Shown one piece after another: positions 9 to 60,244 of a stretch of 64,000 nt of DNA (the first letter of the stretch is position 1; every line of letters starts with the position of its first letter). The translations under genes were made by a program, and so were the position numbers. The stretch spans positions 36,332,001 to 36,396,000 of the forward strand of contig OX597831.1 in NCBI GenBank assembly GCA_951406725.2. Direction: 5' to 3'. Source of the stretch: Octopus vulgaris. Taxonomy: Eukaryota. The notes beneath the pieces were generated by a model. That model worked only from the letters and a program-made list of their open reading frames with translations, had not been told where the DNA came from and did not search any database.

Positions 9-208
9 ATATAGAAATATAATTAAGGGCTCCTAAATAAGGATGCCAAGTGCTAGGGGCACTTGGCATCCTTATTTAGGAGCCCTTAATTATATTTCTA
101 TATGAATAATATTTTTCTGTATGAATAATATTTTGTCTAATAACTAATTCGTCTTTTGTGCTGGGCCACTGGTAATAATCCATATTATTACCCTTTGTTT
201 ATATTCAC

Positions 209-210
<2 letters not shown>
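9..210 (+). mobile_element. Short fold-back element: 45-bp perfect inverted repeat plus tail, ending at (TA)n
   Basis: Arms 9-53 and 59-103 are exact reverse complements around a TAGGG loop. The tail carries GGCCACT and a 9-bp hairpin before (TA)n at ~211. Confidence 0.55.
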
Positions 211-6497: not shown

Positions 6498-6862
6498 ATG
6501 TTATATATATGCATATTATTAACCCTAGGTCAGCGTTAAGAAATGGTTTTACGATTTAATATTCTAACACCTTAAGTTTTCAGACATGACTTTTTTCTCA
6601 GGCTGCATGGTTTAATTTTTCATTACTACTCGTTTTAAAGATGTCCTAAGAAGACCATTAGAAATTAGATAATTGAAGTCTTCTTTGGATGCTGAGGAAC
6701 ACTAAGAAATATTTTGAAAAGATACTAACATCTTGTGAATGTTATTGCAGCACGAAGTATTTTGCACCGAATGAACCCATAAATTGGTTGAGTTTATAAA
6801 TGATAAGTTGAAACAATTTCGTCACAAGTGTTACATACAGTCACTAATTTTACTGTTTGGTT

Positions 6863-7250
6863 TAAGGCAGTGAGCTGGCAGAATTGTTAGCACGCCGGGC
6901 GAAATACGTAGCCGTATTTCGTCTACAGTTACGTTCTGAGTTCAAATTCCGCCGAGGTCGACTTTGCCTTTCATCCTTTCGGGGTCGATAAATTAAGTAC
7001 CAGTTACGCACTGGGGTTGATATTATCGATTTCATCCGTCTGTTTGTCCTTGTTTGTCTCCTCTGTGTTTAGCCCCTTGTTGGTAGTAAAGAAATAAGTA
7101 TGTTCTGAGCTCAAAGTCCGCTAAGGTCGACTTTACTTTTCATCCTTTCAGAGTCAATAAAAGAGGTACCGGTTGAGCACTGAGATTGATGTAATTGAAT
7201 TACCAAATGCACCCCTGTGAAATTTCTGGCCTTGTGCCAAAATTTCCACT
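6863..7250 (+). mobile_element. SINE family B with duplicated body
   Basis: aaggcagtgagctggcagaa head, gagttcaaattcc B box, central gcctttcatcctttcggggtcgataaa, second body from ~7100. Confidence 0.85.
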
Positions 7251-17406: not shown

Positions 17407-17487
<81 letters not shown>

Positions 17488-17510
17488 GGATTAGCTCGTA
17501 TACGAGTAGG

Positions 17511-17891
17511 TATATATTTGTAAAAGATGAAGTTCGAAAATGCTGCTGTATTATACAATTTTTAATTTTTATATATACATTATAACATGTTTCAGTTCCT
17601 GAAATGAACCTTATCAAAAAAAGTTATATATAAAAAAAGACAGCTCATGCCGTCAAACACAAGAAATTCATTTATAATACACAACGGAGTCAGACATCTT
17701 AGAGTTCATGTATAGTTGATATATAGTTCATGTATAGTTGATATATAGTTTGAAGTATATGTTCAAAGTGTTCGATGCAGTGGCCCACGGTGGCGATACG
17801 TATTCAATACAAAAAACAGATCAAAGTGGTGGAAAGCGGTCAATACAGAAGATTGATGTTTCCGAAAGAGCGAGGAATTCATTTTTACCTT
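17511..17891 (-). repeat. PLE 3' pseudo-LTR segment (inverted repeat arm 1)
   Basis: Reverse complement of 21192-21572 with only two mismatches that I could see. Both arms share an internal 22-bp tandem duplication. Confidence 0.95.
17583..17617 (-). ncRNA. HHR variant (U3-A8) in the PLE pseudo-LTR, element sense
   Basis: TTGATAA-GGTTC-ATTTCAG-GAACT-GAAAC-AT-GTT. Compensatory U3:A8 pair, palindromic AACATGTT stem III, imperfect stem I. Confidence 0.55.
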
Positions 17892-17997
17892 AAGCAATTG
17901 TGATGACCCATGGTGGAAGTTCGCTGGGTGGTTCTAGTGAGTTTTTGTGAAGTGCTCGGTTTTATAATGCCTGTTAGGTGGTCAATCTAGCGTAGCG

Positions 17998-18330
17998 TGA
18001 CGTCATCAATGTTTTGACCAATCGTTTCGTTAGGTGGCTTTAATCAAGTAGAACGGGACGTCATCATTATTTTGACCAATCGCTGCATTATAACTCCCTC
18101 TTGTTTGTTTCCTGTTTTGACCAGTCGCTTCGTTAGTCAAGCAGAACGGGACGTCATCCAGATTCTGCCCAATCACGACTTATAGCTACATTAGATCTGC
18201 CCCCTGTCTGTACTTGTTAGGTGACTATTCAAGCAGAAAAGGACGTCATCAATATTCTGACTAATGACTGTCCCCTGTTTGTATCCTGTCCATTCTAGCA
18301 GAGCTAGACGTCATCAACTTGTTGACCAAT
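17998..18330. promoter_or_regulatory. Five GACGTCA-N12-CCAAT modules (CRE-like plus CCAAT box) in the PLE 3' region
   Basis: GACGTCA at 17999, 18057, 18150, 18242 and 18307, each followed after exactly 12 nt by CCAAT (CTAAT in the fourth). Confidence 0.55.
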
Positions 18331-18497
18331 CAGAATCGGGTCTGACCCTTAGCTGTATCGTATGTATCAGGGTCAGATTTGCACGAAAGAATTTTTTCCT
18401 TTTTTACTAAGGCATATTTCCGTCAGAGTGAGTGTCTGTTTGAAGTAGCGGCCGTGGTGAGATTTGGTTCTCCTTTTCGGAGGACTTATCTTTTGTT

Positions 18498-20795
18498 TTA
18501 GTATTCCTGGCCCAGGGTGTTTAAACTTGGTCTAAATTTTTTTATGAAATATAGTTCTTTATTTTGGCGTTGTGTGAAGGTTGCGTTGTCACTGAATTTA
18601 TAGAGCGGGTTAGTTGTAAATTTCGGATTTACATTTCCAGCACATCTATCTATGTGTCCGCTGACTGGTATTTTGCGGTAATCAGGGTTTCTAATTTGTG
18701 ATTTATGCACCGCCATCCTGTTACGTAAGCTATTTTTTGTATGGCCTATATACTGCCTATTGCAGCCTGCGCATGTTATGACGTAAATTAAGTTTTCTGA
18801 TGAGCAGGTGAAGTTTGTTCTAATGGTGAACTGGTGGCCTTGTTCAAGTATAAATTCTGATCCTTCTTTTAAGATGACACAGATTCCGCAGTTGGGCCTT
18901 CCACATTTTCTAACTGCTGGTTTTGTGGTTGATGTTGAGTGCAGTGTAGCTTGGGTTAAAATCCTTTTCAAGGATTTTGGTTGCCGTTTACTTTTAATGA
19001 TGGTGTGTGTTTCGAGGATCCGGTTCATCTTTGGGTCTCCCTTTAGTAGGGCTGTGCTTTGTAGTATGGTGTTGAAGGCCTTATTGTTGAGTGGGTTGTG
19101 TGTAGAGATGTAGGGAAGGGTTTTTAATTGTTCTTTCTTTTTTGGTTTTGTTTGTCTCAGGTCTTCTATACTTAATTTAAGTACCCGTTGGATTGCACTG
19201 TCTATTAGGGGCTGTGGATAGTTTCTATTTGTGAGTGTGGTTCTAAGTTCCTGGAGACGTGTGTGTCGGGTGTTTGTGTCTGATATTATGGTGCAAATCC
19301 TTCTAGCTAAACAAAAAGGGACATTCATTCTAGTGTGTCGTGGGTGGCATGAATCAAAGGGTAGGTACTGTTTAGAGTCTGTCGGTTTATAGTAGATATC
19401 TGTCTCTATTTTGTTGCCGGTTTTCTTAATGAGGATGTCTAAAAATGGTAATTCTTTTTCGTTGTGGTCCATCGTGAATTGTATATTGTCATTTATTCCA
19501 TTTAATAGAATTTTAAATTCCTCAAGTTTCTCTATGCCTTTGTCCCAGATGATGAAACAGTCATCGAGGTATCTTTTCCAGTTGTTATGGATATAGGTGG
19601 CGAAGGTGTTTCCATATTTCTCGAGTGTCATCCGGTATAGTATTTTCTCGAGGTATCCCATCACTAGGTTGGCAAAAGATGGTGCAGTACGCGTGCCCAT
19701 CGCTGTTCCCGATCTTTGCCTGTAGAAATCATTGTCAAAAATAAAATAATTGTTCTCTAAAATGAATCTAAGTCCTTCTATTATAAGGTCTTTGTTTATG
19801 CGAGTTGGGAGTTCAAAGGGGTAGTTATTCAGCCAGAAGGTGATCGCTTCTATTCCTAGGTTGTGAGGGATGTTAGAATAAAGATTAACTACGTCGAATG
19901 ATACTAGAAGGGTTTTCTCATTGACTGTTTTAGGGAGGTGGTTGAGCATATCTATATCGTCTCTTACGTAGCTTTTGATGTGTTTTAGGAAAGGTTTAAG
20001 AAGTGTGTCTAAGAAATTGCTGAGGCGGTGAGTTTCACATGCTGGCCCTGCTATTATCGGTCTTAGTTTAAGATCATTTGGTGAAGGGATTTTGATGAGT
20101 GTGTCGGTGGATGTTTTGCACGTTTCTCTAATGGTTTGGCTTTTGTGTACCTTAGGGACACCATAGAACAAACTTGATTTGCATTTGAAGTTAGTGATAT
20201 ATTCATACTCCTTGTTCGTGAGTCCTTCTTGGTATGTGTTGATTAATGTCCTAAGGTTATGCATTATTTTTTGCTGGTTATACTGTTGGGCCCTTTCATA
20301 ATACGTTTCATCTCTTAATAGGGATAGCACTAAATTTTGATAATTGTTTGTATTCATTATTACTATCGCGTTGCCCTTATCTGCCTCCTTAATTGTTATT
20401 GTTTTGTCTTCTCTTAGTTTGATGAGGTTGTTCCATTCTCTTTTGTTGAAGTTAGGGCTGTGTTTTTGTTTCTTGATGAATTGAAACGGGAAATTAGTTA
20501 TGTAGTCACAATAGCGGTCTAAGGCTTTATTCTTACCTTTGGTGGGGGTGTAATTGCTCTTGTTTCTAGCTATTGAGTCCTCCTCTATTTGTTTGTCTTG
20601 AAATGCCTCGGTGAGTCTTAGTTTTCTGCAAAATTCCGAAATATCATCTTTCATTTCATAATAATTAGAACGTTGTGGGGTGGGTGTAAATTTAAGTCCT
20701 TTGGAGAGTATGCTTATTTCGTTAGGTGTAAGTTCTTTGTTTGAGAGATTGATTATCTTAATTACCTGAGGTTTCTTCTGTTTGTCCTTTGCCAT
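18498..20795 (-). CDS. PLE polyprotein: reverse transcriptase + Cys-rich linker + GIY-YIG endonuclease (765 aa)
   Basis: IINLS..LSKGLKF, IKEADKG, FYGVPKVHK, LRPII, SFDVVNLY, GTAMG, RYLDD, LPFLD, YYKPT, CGRPNCGIC, LIYVITC..CNRQYIGHT, R...H, E..FIKKFRPSLN. Confidence 0.95.
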   Translation of the reverse strand: MAKDKQKKPQVIKIINLSNKELTPNEISILSKGLKFTPTPQRSNYYEMKDDISEFCRKLRLTEAFQDKQIEEDSIARNKSNYTPTKGKNKALDRYCDYITNFPFQFIKKQKHSPNFNKREWNNLIKLREDKTITIKEADKGNAIVIMNTNNYQNLVLSLLRDETYYERAQQYNQQKIMHNLRTLINTYQEGLTNKEYEYITNFKCKSSLFYGVPKVHKSQTIRETCKTSTDTLIKIPSPNDLKLRPIIAGPACETHRLSNFLDTLLKPFLKHIKSYVRDDIDMLNHLPKTVNEKTLLVSFDVVNLYSNIPHNLGIEAITFWLNNYPFELPTRINKDLIIEGLRFILENNYFIFDNDFYRQRSGTAMGTRTAPSFANLVMGYLEKILYRMTLEKYGNTFATYIHNNWKRYLDDCFIIWDKGIEKLEEFKILLNGINDNIQFTMDHNEKELPFLDILIKKTGNKIETDIYYKPTDSKQYLPFDSCHPRHTRMNVPFCLARRICTIISDTNTRHTRLQELRTTLTNRNYPQPLIDSAIQRVLKLSIEDLRQTKPKKKEQLKTLPYISTHNPLNNKAFNTILQSTALLKGDPKMNRILETHTIIKSKRQPKSLKRILTQATLHSTSTTKPAVRKCGRPNCGICVILKEGSEFILEQGHQFTIRTNFTCSSENLIYVITCAGCNRQYIGHTKNSLRNRMAVHKSQIRNPDYRKIPVSGHIDRCAGNVNPKFTTNPLYKFSDNATFTQRQNKELYFIKKFRPSLNTLGQEY

Positions 20796-21193
20796 CGTGT
20801 GTCCCTGTTCCTGTGTGTGGGGTCTAAAAAATGGTTGGTGTAGTTATGTTCAAAGCTATTATTTATCTGTCTCATGTTGTTATAATTGTCAGAGTGAGTT
20901 TGTGGTGCTCTGTTCTGGAGTCTGTTGTTGAACCTAGTGTTACGTCTTAGTTCCTCAGGTATATTGTGTTGGTAGTTGTTTCCTCCGTAGTGCATTTGTT
21001 GTTTGTTATGGTTGTATGGTTGGTTCCTGGGGTGGATGTTTGGTAGTAGCGTTTTGGTTTGGTTATGTGGGTTGTATTTTATAGTATTGTATGTTGTGGC
21101 TCTTAGGTTCGTGGAATGGTGTGGTGGGACCCTATAAGTGTTTTGGGGTTGGTGTAGGTAGTGTGGGGTGCGTTTTAAATGCACCCCACACAA
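20762..21193 (-). CDS. 5'-truncated upstream ORF of the PLE (N/H/Q/P-rich), overlapping the RT ORF start in another frame
   Basis: Stop-free for 143 codons from the inversion junction; basic C-terminus; 34-nt overlap with the RT ORF. Confidence 0.45.
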   Translation of the reverse strand: MCGVHLKRTPHYLHQPQNTYRVPPHHSTNLRATTYNTIKYNPHNQTKTLLPNIHPRNQPYNHNKQQMHYGGNNYQHNIPEELRRNTRFNNRLQNRAPQTHSDNYNNMRQINNSFEHNYTNHFLDPTHRNRDTRWQRTNRRNLR

Positions 21194-21566
21194 GGTAAAA
21201 ATGAATTCCTCGCTCTTTCGGAAACATCAATCTTCTGTATTGACCGCTTTCCACCACTTTGATCTGTTTTTTGTATTGAATACGTATCGCCACCGTGGGC
21301 CACTGCATCGAACACTTTGAACATATACTTCAAACTATATATCAACTATACATGAACTATATATCAACTATACATGAACTCTAAGATGTCTGACTCTGTT
21401 GTGTATTATAAATGAATTTCTTGTGTTTGACGGCATGAGCTGTCTTTTTTTATATATAACTTTTTTTGATAAGGTTCATTTCAGGAACTGAAACATGTTA
21501 TAATGTATATATAAAAATTAAAAATTGTATAATACAGCAGCATTTTCGAACTTCATTTTTTACAAA

Positions 21567-21572
<6 letters not shown>
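21192..21572 (+). repeat. Inverted 5' copy of the PLE pseudo-LTR (arm 2), including the HHR variant at 21466-21500
   Basis: Reverse complement of 17511-17891. Confidence 0.95.
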
Positions 21573-29469: not shown

Positions 29470-29673
29470 ACTCCTTTATAACATGAGCATAAGGCTTGAA
29501 ATTTTAGGGGAAGGGGATGAGCCCAGGGCTCAACTGGTACTTGTTTTATTGATCCCAAAATCATGAAAGGCAAAGCCGACTTGAGCGGTATTTGAACTCT
29601 GAACGTAAATACGTACGAAATGCCGCTAAGCATTTTATCTGGCGTTGTGACGATTCTGCCAGCTCACCGCCTT
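29470..29673 (-). mobile_element. SINE family B (diverged)
   Basis: tgaaaggcaaagccgac...tttgaactc...ttctgccagctcaccgcctt. Confidence 0.75.
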
Positions 29674-29686
29674 GATAATAATAATG

Positions 29687-29772
<86 letters not shown>

Positions 29773-30232
29773 CCTTTCTGCTTTGGCCACAAAGCCTGAA
29801 ATTTTGGGGAGGCGGTAAGTCGACTACATCGACTCCAGTAGGCAACTGGTACTTAATTCATAAAGGCGGAGAGCTGGCAGAATCGTTAGCACGCTGGGTG
29901 AAATGCTTATTGGTATTTCGTCTGCCGTTACGTTCTGAGTTCAAATTCCGCAGAGGTTGACTTTGCCTTTCATCCTTTCGGGGTCGATAAATTAAGTACC
30001 AGTTACGCACTGGGGTCGATGTAATCGACTTAATCCGCTTGTCTGTCCTTGTTTGTCCCCTCTGTGTTTAGCCCCTTGTGGGTAGTAAAGAAATAGGTAC
30101 TTAATTCATCGACCCCGAAAGAATGAAAGGCAAAGTCGACCTTGGCGGAATTTGAACTCAGAACGTAACGGCAGACGAAATACAGCTAAGCATTTTTTTC
30201 CCAGCGTACTAACGTTTCTGCCAGCTCACCGA
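29773..30232. mobile_element. Nested SINE family B: plus copy (29862-30098) inside a minus copy
   Basis: 14-bp direct repeat ggtacttaattcat at 29848-29861 and 30096-30109. Confidence 0.85.
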
Positions 30233-34590: not shown

Positions 34591-34666
34591 AGCTGAAGTC
34601 GTAGAAACCATGCAATATTTTATATGGGTCACAAAGCAGTCAGTCCCTTCATTATAAGCGATCATT

Positions 34667-35048
34667 AAGGCGACGAGCTGGCAGAAACGTTAGCACGCCG
34701 GGCGAAATGCTTAGCGGTATTTCGTCTGTCTTTACGTTCTGAGTTCAAATTCGGCCGAGGTCGACTGTGCCTTTCATTCTTTCGGGGTCGATAAATTAAG
34801 TACGAGTTACACACTGGGGTCGATGTAATCGACTTATTCTATTTGTTTGTTTTTGTTTAGCCCCTTGTGGGTAGTAAAGAAATAGGTATTTCATATACCG
34901 GTACGTTCGGAGCTCAAATTCCGCCGAGGTCGACTTTGCCTTTCATCCTTTTGGGGTCGATGAATTAAGTACCAGATGTGTACTGGGGTCGATCTAATCG
35001 ACAGGCACCCTCCCCAAAATATCTGGCCTTGCGCCTAGAGTAGAAAAG
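34667..35048 (+). mobile_element. SINE family B with duplicated body
   Basis: Two central domains joined at aagaaataggtatttc. Confidence 0.88.
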
Positions 35049-36840: not shown

Positions 36841-36842
<2 letters not shown>

Positions 36843-37161
36843 GGATAAGATCGTTAATTCAAAATAAAATAACGATTTTATCAAGTGGCCAGTATGGAAA
36901 AAATGACCTTCAAAGGTAATAATTATTAAAATTATAATCTAAAACCACCTTAATTGTCTGTGTGTATTCTACTGACGAGGCAAAGCATTCCTAAACGCAA
37001 ATTCAGAAACCCGGGATCTAGAATTATCCAGTAATTTTTACTAGCTTCAACTTGTCTCTGTTTTCCCTCCGTGTTTGCGATATGGACAATTAAGGTGGTT
37101 TTAGAGTCAGATCATGGTTGCTAGTTTCAGCATGGTGGTATCTCGCAGACACCCTAATTTA

Positions 37162-48783: not shown

Positions 48784-48884
48784 GCGCGCACCCACACACA
48801 TATGCATATGTGTATGTGTACACATACACATACACGCACAAGCACACACACACACACACACATATATATACAAAAGATATATAG

Positions 48885-49323
48885 GGTAGCGAATATTTAT
48901 AAAAATTTCACTACTAGTGGCCTAGCAAGTATAAAAAATCAATAAACAACATATTTTCAATATAAAATAGTGTACATTTAAACACAAGAGAAAACTATCT
49001 TTCACAGGTAATTTTTACACCCTAGAAGAAGCAGTCAAAACGACCAAAACCACATCTAAGAGCCATTTTCGAAGGGAATGAAAAATAAAAACTGTTACCT
49101 TGTTATTTTTTTACGGTTATACCTAGGCTTCAGATTTCTTTAGCAAATAAAATAATTTGCTAGGCGAATCCTCGTCAGTAACCGTGCCTTAACAACTAAC
49201 ATATAATTTAGAGACAAATAACACGTGTAACATCATTATATGCTATAATTTTTCCAAATGCAGCTCTTCTTGTATCGTGTAAAAATTACCTGTTAAAGGT
49301 AGTTTTCTCTTGTGTTTAAATGT

Positions 49324-49326
<3 letters not shown>
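48885..49326 (-). mobile_element. Miniature PLE-type element: 50-bp inverted repeat enclosing an HHR
   Basis: IR 48971-49020 / 49277-49326, HHR 49113-49185, TA-rich flanks. Confidence 0.7.
49113..49185 (-). ncRNA. Type I HHR motif (GAAG core variant)
   Basis: ACGGTTA-CTGACGA-GGATT..TAGCAAAT-tatttt-ATTTGCTA..AATCT-GAAG-CCTAGG-TA-TAACCGT. Perfect 7-bp stem I. Confidence 0.72.
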
Positions 49327-49386
<60 letters not shown>

Positions 49387-59018: not shown

Positions 59019-59421
59019 CCTATTTCTTTATTGACCACAAGGGGCTAAACATAGAGGGAACAAACAAGGACAGACAAAGGGATTAAGTCGATTATATCGT
59101 AACTGGTACTTAATTTATCAACCCCGAAAGGATGAAAGGTAAAGTCGACCTCGGCGGAATTTGAACTCAGAACGTAACGGCAGACGAAATACTTATTTCT
59201 TTACTACCCACAAGGGGCTAAACACAGAGAGGACAAACAAGGACAGACAAACGGATTAAGTCGATTACATCGACCCCAGTGCGTAACTGGTACTTAATTT
59301 AATCGACCCCGAAAGGATGAAAGGCAAAGTCGACCTCGGCGGAATTTGAACTCAGAACGTAACGGGTGACGAAATACCGATTCACATTTCGTCCGGCGTA
59401 TTAACGTTTCTGCCAGCTCGC
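59019..59421 (-). mobile_element. SINE family B dimer (head + 2 bodies)
   Basis: Two body/tail units joined at gacgaaatacttatttctttac. Confidence 0.9.
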
Positions 59422-60244
59422 TTTGGACATAAGCCTCTACAGAAATAAAGTCCTAGCTATTTCCAACAACAGAAATGGGTGTAATCTGCATAAAATGAGA
59501 GAAGGCCTAATTAGTTTCTTTGAAGATCTAAGACATGCAAGTTACTGCAACTACTATGATAAATAAATTTCTAGCTGATGCCTAAAAATTCCAACACGTA
59601 AATACAAAGAATAAACACACAAAAAAAGTAATGAAATGTCATTAAATCATTTACTCAGAACTTCGCACAGTCAATCGTTCTAAGTACCTCATTGTTTATA
59701 AATAATAGATGGATCCCCGAATATTGCTTATTTTTCGGTAATTAAACATAGAGGTGTTCACGAAAATCTTGCATCTAAAGTACGTTGGATCTAAAATGTA
59801 TATTTATGTCCTATGTCTGAGAGAGACTAGGACCAGGAGCAATGGTTCTTTCAATCAACTCTTCCTTGGCTACACACGACACGTCAGTGAGCTGGAATGA
59901 CATATGTACAGGAAACCAAAGAGAGAAATTGTGGTTAGAATTTTAATCACTATTTATCCTGTGCGCGCGAATAAACACGCTATCCATTTGTTTGTCAATT
60001 AGAATTTACTACCAACTACATGAATACGAGACTATATTTTCATAATAGCTTATAGTGATTTGTTAAATTAGCACAAGAGCAGGTGTTTGTATTATAGATG
60101 CCATCGAATAAAACTCTACATATGCATGTCACAAATTTTAGCGGTTGCCTCCAAAACGCCACAGGATTTTGAAAAATTTAGAAATTAAGCGTAACACATT
60201 TACAATTATTATCATTAGAAATATAGTCACGATTAGCTTTAGAC

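Follow-up and report, generated by a model that had tools for sequence, protein, structure and literature searches.

A hammerhead-bearing 442-nt repeat copy in the Octopus vulgaris genome, probably a truncated and decayed Penelope-type insertion

INTRODUCTION

According to the accessible parts of Craig 2021 (PMC8557442) and Arkhipova 2013 (PMC3846280), insertions of Penelope-like elements (PLEs) often carry an inverted, 5'-truncated copy, have a tail on one side only, and show a bias toward (TA)n tracts; in the source text available, the published tail length is 30 to 40 bp. For the PAc protein, the part of PMC11167929 available to us reports that, with the purified protein, both DNA strands are cut and extended, synthesis begins at two sites within the RNA that bound the tail, and hammerhead cleavage is not required. 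Here, we analyze a 442-base piece, read on the minus strand from 49326 to 48885, of a 64,000-nt stretch of Octopus vulgaris DNA (contig OX597831.1), referred to below as the window. It is composed, in this order, of an inverted arm, a junction, an upstream segment, a hammerhead, a spacer, an inner arm, and a tail. We consider it probable that this piece represents one mutated copy, truncated at its 5' side, of the hammerhead-carrying end of an abundant repeat family, likely inserted into (TA)n by a PLE protein with reverse transcriptase (RT) and GIY-YIG domains.

RESULTS

Anatomy of the 442-nt copy

The features of the copy and of its flanks, listed from the 5' to the 3' end on the minus strand, are as follows.

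49327..49355, no strand: (TA)n tract, 5' flank and likely insertion target (from the sequence)
49266..49326, plus strand as family-sense strand: inverted, tail-less short copy of 48971-49031, 51 to 61 nt
49260..49265, no strand: head-to-head junction, apparently private to the 442-nt copy (from contig depth)
49186..49259, minus strand: family sequence 5' of the hammerhead, 74 nt, 5' truncated at about 49259 (from contigs)
49113..49185, minus strand: type I hammerhead with palindromic helix III (CCUAGG) (from descriptor and family contigs)
49032..49112, minus strand: spacer between hammerhead and inner arm, abundant family sequence (from contigs)
48971..49031, minus strand: inner arm; family copies without a tail commonly end in the zone of its 3' edge, 48960-48971
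48885..48970, minus strand: one-sided tail of 86 nt, missing from the inverted copy (from arm comparison and contigs)
48916..48922, minus strand: GGCCACT motif (sequence match)
48885..48915, minus strand: terminal hairpin of 12 bp, -9.1 kcal/mol, directly after GGCCACT
48873..48884, minus strand: probably the last few bases of the family sequence, adjoining the (TA)/(TG) flank at an uncertain boundary (from loose contig ends and depth)

The preliminary description had claimed a 50-bp inverted copy without the tail, and this was confirmed: the arms 48971-49031 and 49266-49326 are 92% identical over 61 nt (E value of 1e-19 within the window), with only 2 mismatches in the first 50 nt and 3 in the first 51 nt. 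The tail with GGCCACT and a hairpin was also found as described, the motif running from 48922 to 48916 and the hairpin that follows directly ending at 48885-48886. With the family-majority letter at 48915, a 13th pair closes and the hairpin reaches -11.4 kcal/mol. Loose contig ends at 48877 (X13 and X17) place the 3' end perhaps some 8 to 12 nt past 48885. No target-site duplication is readable at the (TA)n flank, within the microsatellite. The copy has no credible coding capacity, the only ATG frames wholly within it being 20 to 21 amino acids long, and 121 PLE proteins compared with it by tblastn gave no match. At the gathering threshold, Rfam gave 0 matches in the whole window. Elsewhere, the window contains dispersed SINE-like repeats of 120 to 240 nt in many copies (e.g., 6862-7204, 29519-30203, 34661-35029, and 59088-59422).

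Comparison with the large element at 17484-21572

The minus-strand element at 17484-21572 is apparently a young, intact PLE, with a 781-codon open frame that contains RT and GIY-YIG domains and whose best database matches are 58% identical. Its sequence contains a CX4CXXC linker and a CCHH motif, which suggests the Neptune/Nematis type in the definition given by PMC8557442. Its arms are 381 nt long and differ at 2 positions; the inversion junction contains an imperfect palindrome (21161-21191). Its hammerheads, one inside each duplicated arm, are of the U3-A8 variant, already described in the available text of PMC4209133. The tail measures 24 to 27 nt and does not include GGCCACT, which is found about 300 nt away from the end. 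The distance from stop codon to hammerhead is 870 nt, which is more than is visible upstream of the 442-nt copy. We also observed short internal repeats in the 3' untranslated region and an upstream 154-codon frame that overlaps the start of the ORF.

The preliminary description had read the 442-nt copy as a miniature of the full PLE architecture, matching the geometry of this large element. The individual parts, namely, the inverted 5' copy, the hammerhead, the tail, and the absence of an ORF, are all present; the idea of a scaled replica of 17484-21572 did not hold, since the position of the hammerhead inside the arm, the 24- to 27-nt tail, and the placement of GGCCACT all differ. No similarity between the two was detected by blastn; what matches is therefore the generic PLE layout, which makes the 442-nt copy neither a replica at smaller scale nor a proven partner. 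On the same grounds, we rejected 17484-21572 as parent of the 442-nt copy. The search for an autonomous partner was likewise extended to 83 loci related to the protein of the large element, most of them distant relatives, and blastn gave no match to the 442-nt copy; neither these loci nor 17484-21572 provided the partner whose identification had been called for. No RT/GIY-YIG ORF linked to the terminal repeat was present in the 442-nt copy, upstream of which 30 letters of family sequence are visible. Among the related loci, L060 (2835-5091), from another organism, has the same inverted pLTR pair with hammerheads, and PLE-like contigs (L081 to L083) lie in three assemblies labelled bacterial, where they are probably host contamination.

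The hammerhead is conserved in the family, and GAAG is private to this copy

A well-formed hammerhead had been described from the letters, and all of its elements were recovered at 49185-49113 on the minus strand: a 7-bp stem I, CUGACGA, a two-part stem II with 5 basal and 8 apical base pairs, GAAG, the CCUAGG palindrome, and the GUA triplet, with predicted cleavage after A49120. The descriptor matched once in the real window and not at all in 200 Markov-1 random windows of 64 kb. The fold energy by itself is unremarkable (z of -1.8).

To place this copy among its relatives, we used contigs from public sequencing runs. Of the 24 runs listed, the family data come from four DNA or unlabelled runs and four presumed-RNA runs, the kind of run being partly guessed; none of the runs that contain the family is recorded as RNA. 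The contig tables are unphased, summed depth does not equal copy number, and none of the listed contigs spans the whole 442-nt copy. In the four DNA or unlabelled runs, 1,813, 2,008, 2,322, and 193 family contigs were placed on the locus, and the family is therefore abundant. Family contigs are also present in the four presumed-RNA runs.

At A15.1 (position 49128), the 442-nt copy has G and the family has A. The letter T on the plus strand, corresponding to GAAA, accounts for 97, 97, 98, and 81% of the depth in the four DNA or unlabelled runs (83, 94, 88, and 10 contigs, respectively) and for all depth in the two of the four presumed-RNA runs that cover 49128. GAAG as a natural hammerhead variant was thus rejected, canonical GAAA making up 81 to 98% of the family depth, and the earlier question of GAAG versus GAAA turned out to concern a private mutation of the 442-nt copy. 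Since A15.1 mutants are reported to be 10- to over 100-fold slower (in the available text of PMC3088659 and PMC4075628), the ribozyme of this copy is probably crippled by A15.1G. As a caution, hammerhead "variants" such as GAAG that are seen in a single copy are often mutations. The copy also departs from the family at 49174, where 92 to 99% of the depth gives CUGAUGA. Overall, at least 15 sites in 375 nt differ from the family majority among 40 of the 96 difference rows, which sets a lower bound of about 4% divergence.

Variation within the family leaves the functional parts in place. (i) Positions 49124 and 49125 change together in X18 and X16, converting CCUAGG into CCAUGG and keeping the palindrome. 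(ii) A relative with the same flanks and an unalignable 111-nt middle (joint 49106-49218), found in X13, X16, and X17 from two studies, still has GAAA-CCAUGG-UC. (iii) Loose contig ends reveal further relatives in which a new stem I adjoins CUGAUGA. (iv) Among the listed variants, those at the paired stem positions 49113/49185, 49118/49180, and 49133/49170 are compatible with compensation, in unphased data. Judged from this sequence pattern, in which core and palindrome are kept and stems change, the family hammerhead is conserved and under selection. In intact family members, the hammerhead would be predicted to cleave in dimeric form by way of its palindromic helix III, and hammerheads that keep the palindrome fit the dimer-type hammerheads of PLE ends, as the accessible part of PMC4209133 describes them.

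The relative with the 49106-49218 joint is represented by a relatively deep contig (depth of 37 to 65) in three presumed-RNA runs and is a candidate active member. Downstream of the hammerhead, an intron-like stretch of 77 nt (49098-49022, minus strand) runs from GT through a pyrimidine-rich segment to AG; a corresponding splice joint was absent among the 4 joints listed for the presumed-RNA runs, so that an intron is unsupported. In metagenome contigs, an exact family 20-mer gave 0 matches, as did the family hammerhead pattern in viral contigs. A literature search on octopus, Penelope, and hammerhead returned nothing on this family as judged by titles and the beginnings of abstracts; supplements or Repbase consensus files may contain it. 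A literature search on misclassification as MITEs likewise found nothing relevant.

This conservation bears on whether the locus is a DNA-transposon MITE with terminal inverted repeats of 61 to 65 nt, a TA target duplication, and a chance hammerhead-like motif inside. The arms can indeed be extended to 65 nt with TA adjoining both, a fixed duplication being unreadable within the microsatellite. This explanation is largely refuted by the 86 nt of family sequence beyond the right arm, so that the arms do not lie at both ends; moreover, the core and palindrome are conserved through a double change, the descriptor found nothing in the 200 random windows, and the copies are not uniform, with inner ends that vary, divergence at 49254-49259, and a junction that is not abundant. 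The preliminary description had named inverted repeats of a MITE with a hammerhead motif that is not conserved as the finding that would speak against a PLE; what we found is a hammerhead conserved in the family and its relatives, and we regard a MITE as extremely improbable.

Family copies share their outer ends and differ at their inner ends

It had been asked whether copies share identical inversion breakpoints, as expected of an amplified family. They do not: breakpoints vary among copies, and the family continues upstream. At the junction, the summed depth of bin 49254-49269 is 4 to 16% of that of bin 49222-49237, and none of 64 listed contig pieces bridges 49260-49265. Because no listed contig spans the whole copy, these figures show just that the junction is not abundant. 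Past 49254-49259, the family continues with a different sequence that is shared by 4 contigs of X3, 3 of X18, and 2 of X16 (median of 160 nt), and 4 listed records extend 65 to 165 nt upstream of this point. Opposite-strand joints occur elsewhere, at 49106/49194, 49111/49181, and 48960/49228, among the 15 of 56 joints listed. One contig has arm sequence joined at 49111, and another ends in (TA)n at 49110. Depth declines toward the 5' side unevenly and is confounded by related families. From the varying breakpoints and the upstream continuation, we conclude that the copy reflects independent truncation and is not a self-contained miniature element.

At the other side, the ends coincide. In X4, 29 contigs pass into (TA)n at 48960, and the start of many listed pieces falls at 48956-48964. 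The arm start of the 442-nt copy (48967-48971) lies beside AT-rich bases in the same zone as these family ends. Family contigs enter (TA)n at 48960, at 49110, and beyond 48877. Outer ends are thus shared among family copies, and inner ends are variable.

These data weigh on the proposal that a non-autonomous mini-PLE, comprising the whole 442-bp unit with its inversion, was amplified with its breakpoints fixed. What speaks for it is that one compact unit contains every cis part, that the family is abundant, and that non-autonomous derivatives of PLEs are known; against this stand the low junction depth and the 0 of 64 bridging pieces, as well as copies that extend upstream or invert elsewhere and the roughly 4% decay of this copy. 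We therefore judge an amplified mini-PLE very unlikely and retain the reading of a single truncated insertion.

The arms raise a question of timing, namely, whether the body was inserted first and the inverted arm was added later or separately, either by a second (TA)n insertion or by DNA fold-back and repair. At all three mismatches in the first 51 nt, the 5' arm (49266-49326) has the family-majority letter and the private change is in the inner arm; this, and the fact that (TA)n tracts are repeated targets, speaks for such a sequence of events. However, finding 0 changes in 51 nt at 4% divergence has a P of about 0.13, so that there is no significant age gap between the arms; in addition, there is no (TA)n at the junction, and the layout is a published by-product of single PLE insertions (in the parts available of PMC8557442 and PMC3846280). 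A later addition of the arm is accordingly unlikely, and insertion of the copy in one event is preferred. Different parents for the two halves were also considered and rejected as not significant.

GGCCACT and an adjoining hairpin recur in unrelated stubs

GGCCACT occurs 6 times in the window versus 2.8 times expected, and 6 of 100 shuffles reach 6; two of the six sites are a duplicated copy within the large element 17484-21572. Of the five independent sites, three are followed by (TA)4 at distances of 40, 42, and 45 nt. About 6% of the window positions are within 60 nt of (TA)4, which by hand gives a binomial value of about 0.002 for a motif chosen after the fact. In the three stubs concerned, a hairpin of 9 to 16 bp follows directly after the motif (z of -1.2 to -2.4), and each has a one-sided tail and an inverted repeat. 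The three stubs showed no similarity to each other by blastn.

In the stub at 9-210 (plus strand), a fold-back of 45 nt without mismatches encloses a spacer of 5 nt; next come a tail on one side only, which includes GGCCACT and a 9-bp hairpin, and then (TA)n. It is a second, unrelated PLE-type stub. The stub at 36841-37160 lies between two (TA)n tracts and has GGCCACT and a hairpin on the minus strand. Its inverted arms (36938-36958 and 37085-37105) are perfect over 21 nt and then diverge abruptly, which is unexplained, and by eye the plus strand of the stub, opposite to the strand of the tail, shows a motif that resembles a hammerhead and includes the palindrome CCCGGG.

GGCCACU plus a long hairpin might be a shared PLE-type RT start signal that repeat families of this genome have retained despite their unrelated sequences; we put this forward tentatively and would sooner expect it to fail than to hold. 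Against it, GGCCACT of the large element lies outside the tail, and the sample amounts to three stubs. Among the 83 related loci, some have GGCCACT, and none was seen in a tail-like position. A literature search for GGCCACT and Penelope found nothing relevant. If the signal is true, one enzyme would serve several non-coding hammerhead families via the GGCCACU motif, and tails could reach 75 to 90 nt; such a short RNA element, if real, would lend itself to tests of template and start-site choice by a PLE enzyme.

DISCUSSION

The copy shows features of insertions by PLEs with endonuclease (EN+), namely, an inverted 5'-truncated copy at the 5' end, a type I hammerhead in a terminal repeat, and a (TA)n target. 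The private GAAG, the decay of about 4%, the upstream continuation, and the differing inversions indicate a one-off decayed insertion and neither an amplified mini-element nor a MITE. The link of a short hammerhead element to Penelope-type integration, drawn in the preliminary description, is upheld.

Anatomy and family variation are read directly from the locus and the contigs, and the enzymology proposed here is inferred from PAc. Following the presumed cleavage of both strands of an AT-rich target by the endonuclease, the two DNA ends would serve as primers for reverse transcription, each starting from one of two positions inside the family RNA. Site 1 would lie just past the GGCCACU hairpin, at about 48873-48885, and site 2 some 75 to 90 nt upstream of it, at about 48960-48971 as deduced from contig ends. 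The cDNA from site 1 would have reached approximately 375 to 385 nt, stopping about 75 nt beyond the hammerhead, and that from site 2 would have stopped after 51 to 61 nt. The two cDNAs would have been joined head to head, which accounts for an inverted arm without tail. Since the arms overlap on the template, two RNA molecules, or one that was re-used, would be needed. After insertion, the copy would have gathered about 4% of point changes, including A15.1G. As to the template, the pLTR of a coding PLE and a non-coding retrozyme-like unit appear about equally probable. The tail, which is family sequence, measures 75 to 90 nt, about twice the published length.

The locus itself is of small importance, being decayed debris of a known insertion type whose layout is already published. 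Its shared outer ends and variable inner ends fit a two-start-site model of PLE integration.

The following comparisons with known systems refer to the accessible portions of the sources. (i) The EN-bearing PLE units, including Adineta Pen2a (PMC8557442 and PMC3846280), likewise have a head-to-head, tail-less inverted copy, a one-sided tail, a sense-strand hammerhead, and (TA)n; the 442-nt copy differs in that it has no ORF, a tail of 75 to 90 nt, and an inverted arm too short for a hammerhead. (ii) The PLE hammerheads with a small palindromic helix III (Cervera and de la Pena 2014, PMC4209133) are similarly type I, correspond to the canonical core of the family, have a palindrome suited for dimers, and occur mostly as single motifs in truncated copies, whereas the 442-nt copy has a longer stem I (7 bp), a long two-part stem II, and A15.1G. 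(iii) In common with Poseidon PAc of the green anole (Frangieh et al. 2024, PMC11167929), there are two preferred ends bounding the tail, a stem-loop adjoining the end, and an AT-rich target. However, the PAc ORF starts within the hammerhead, the 442-nt copy has no such ORF, and its start sites are deduced from contig ends. (iv) Animal non-LTR retrozymes (Cervera and de la Pena 2020, PMC7229834; Li, Clavereau and Pollet 2026, bioRxiv 10.64898/2026.07.22.740005) are also short, non-coding, pLTR-related repeats with a type I hammerhead. In contrast to them, no tandem array, second hammerhead, or circular junction is seen in the 442-nt copy, and no go-back joint of tandem units occurs among the listed joints, for which the reference lacks part of the unit. 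Solo monomers are described for these retrozymes as well.
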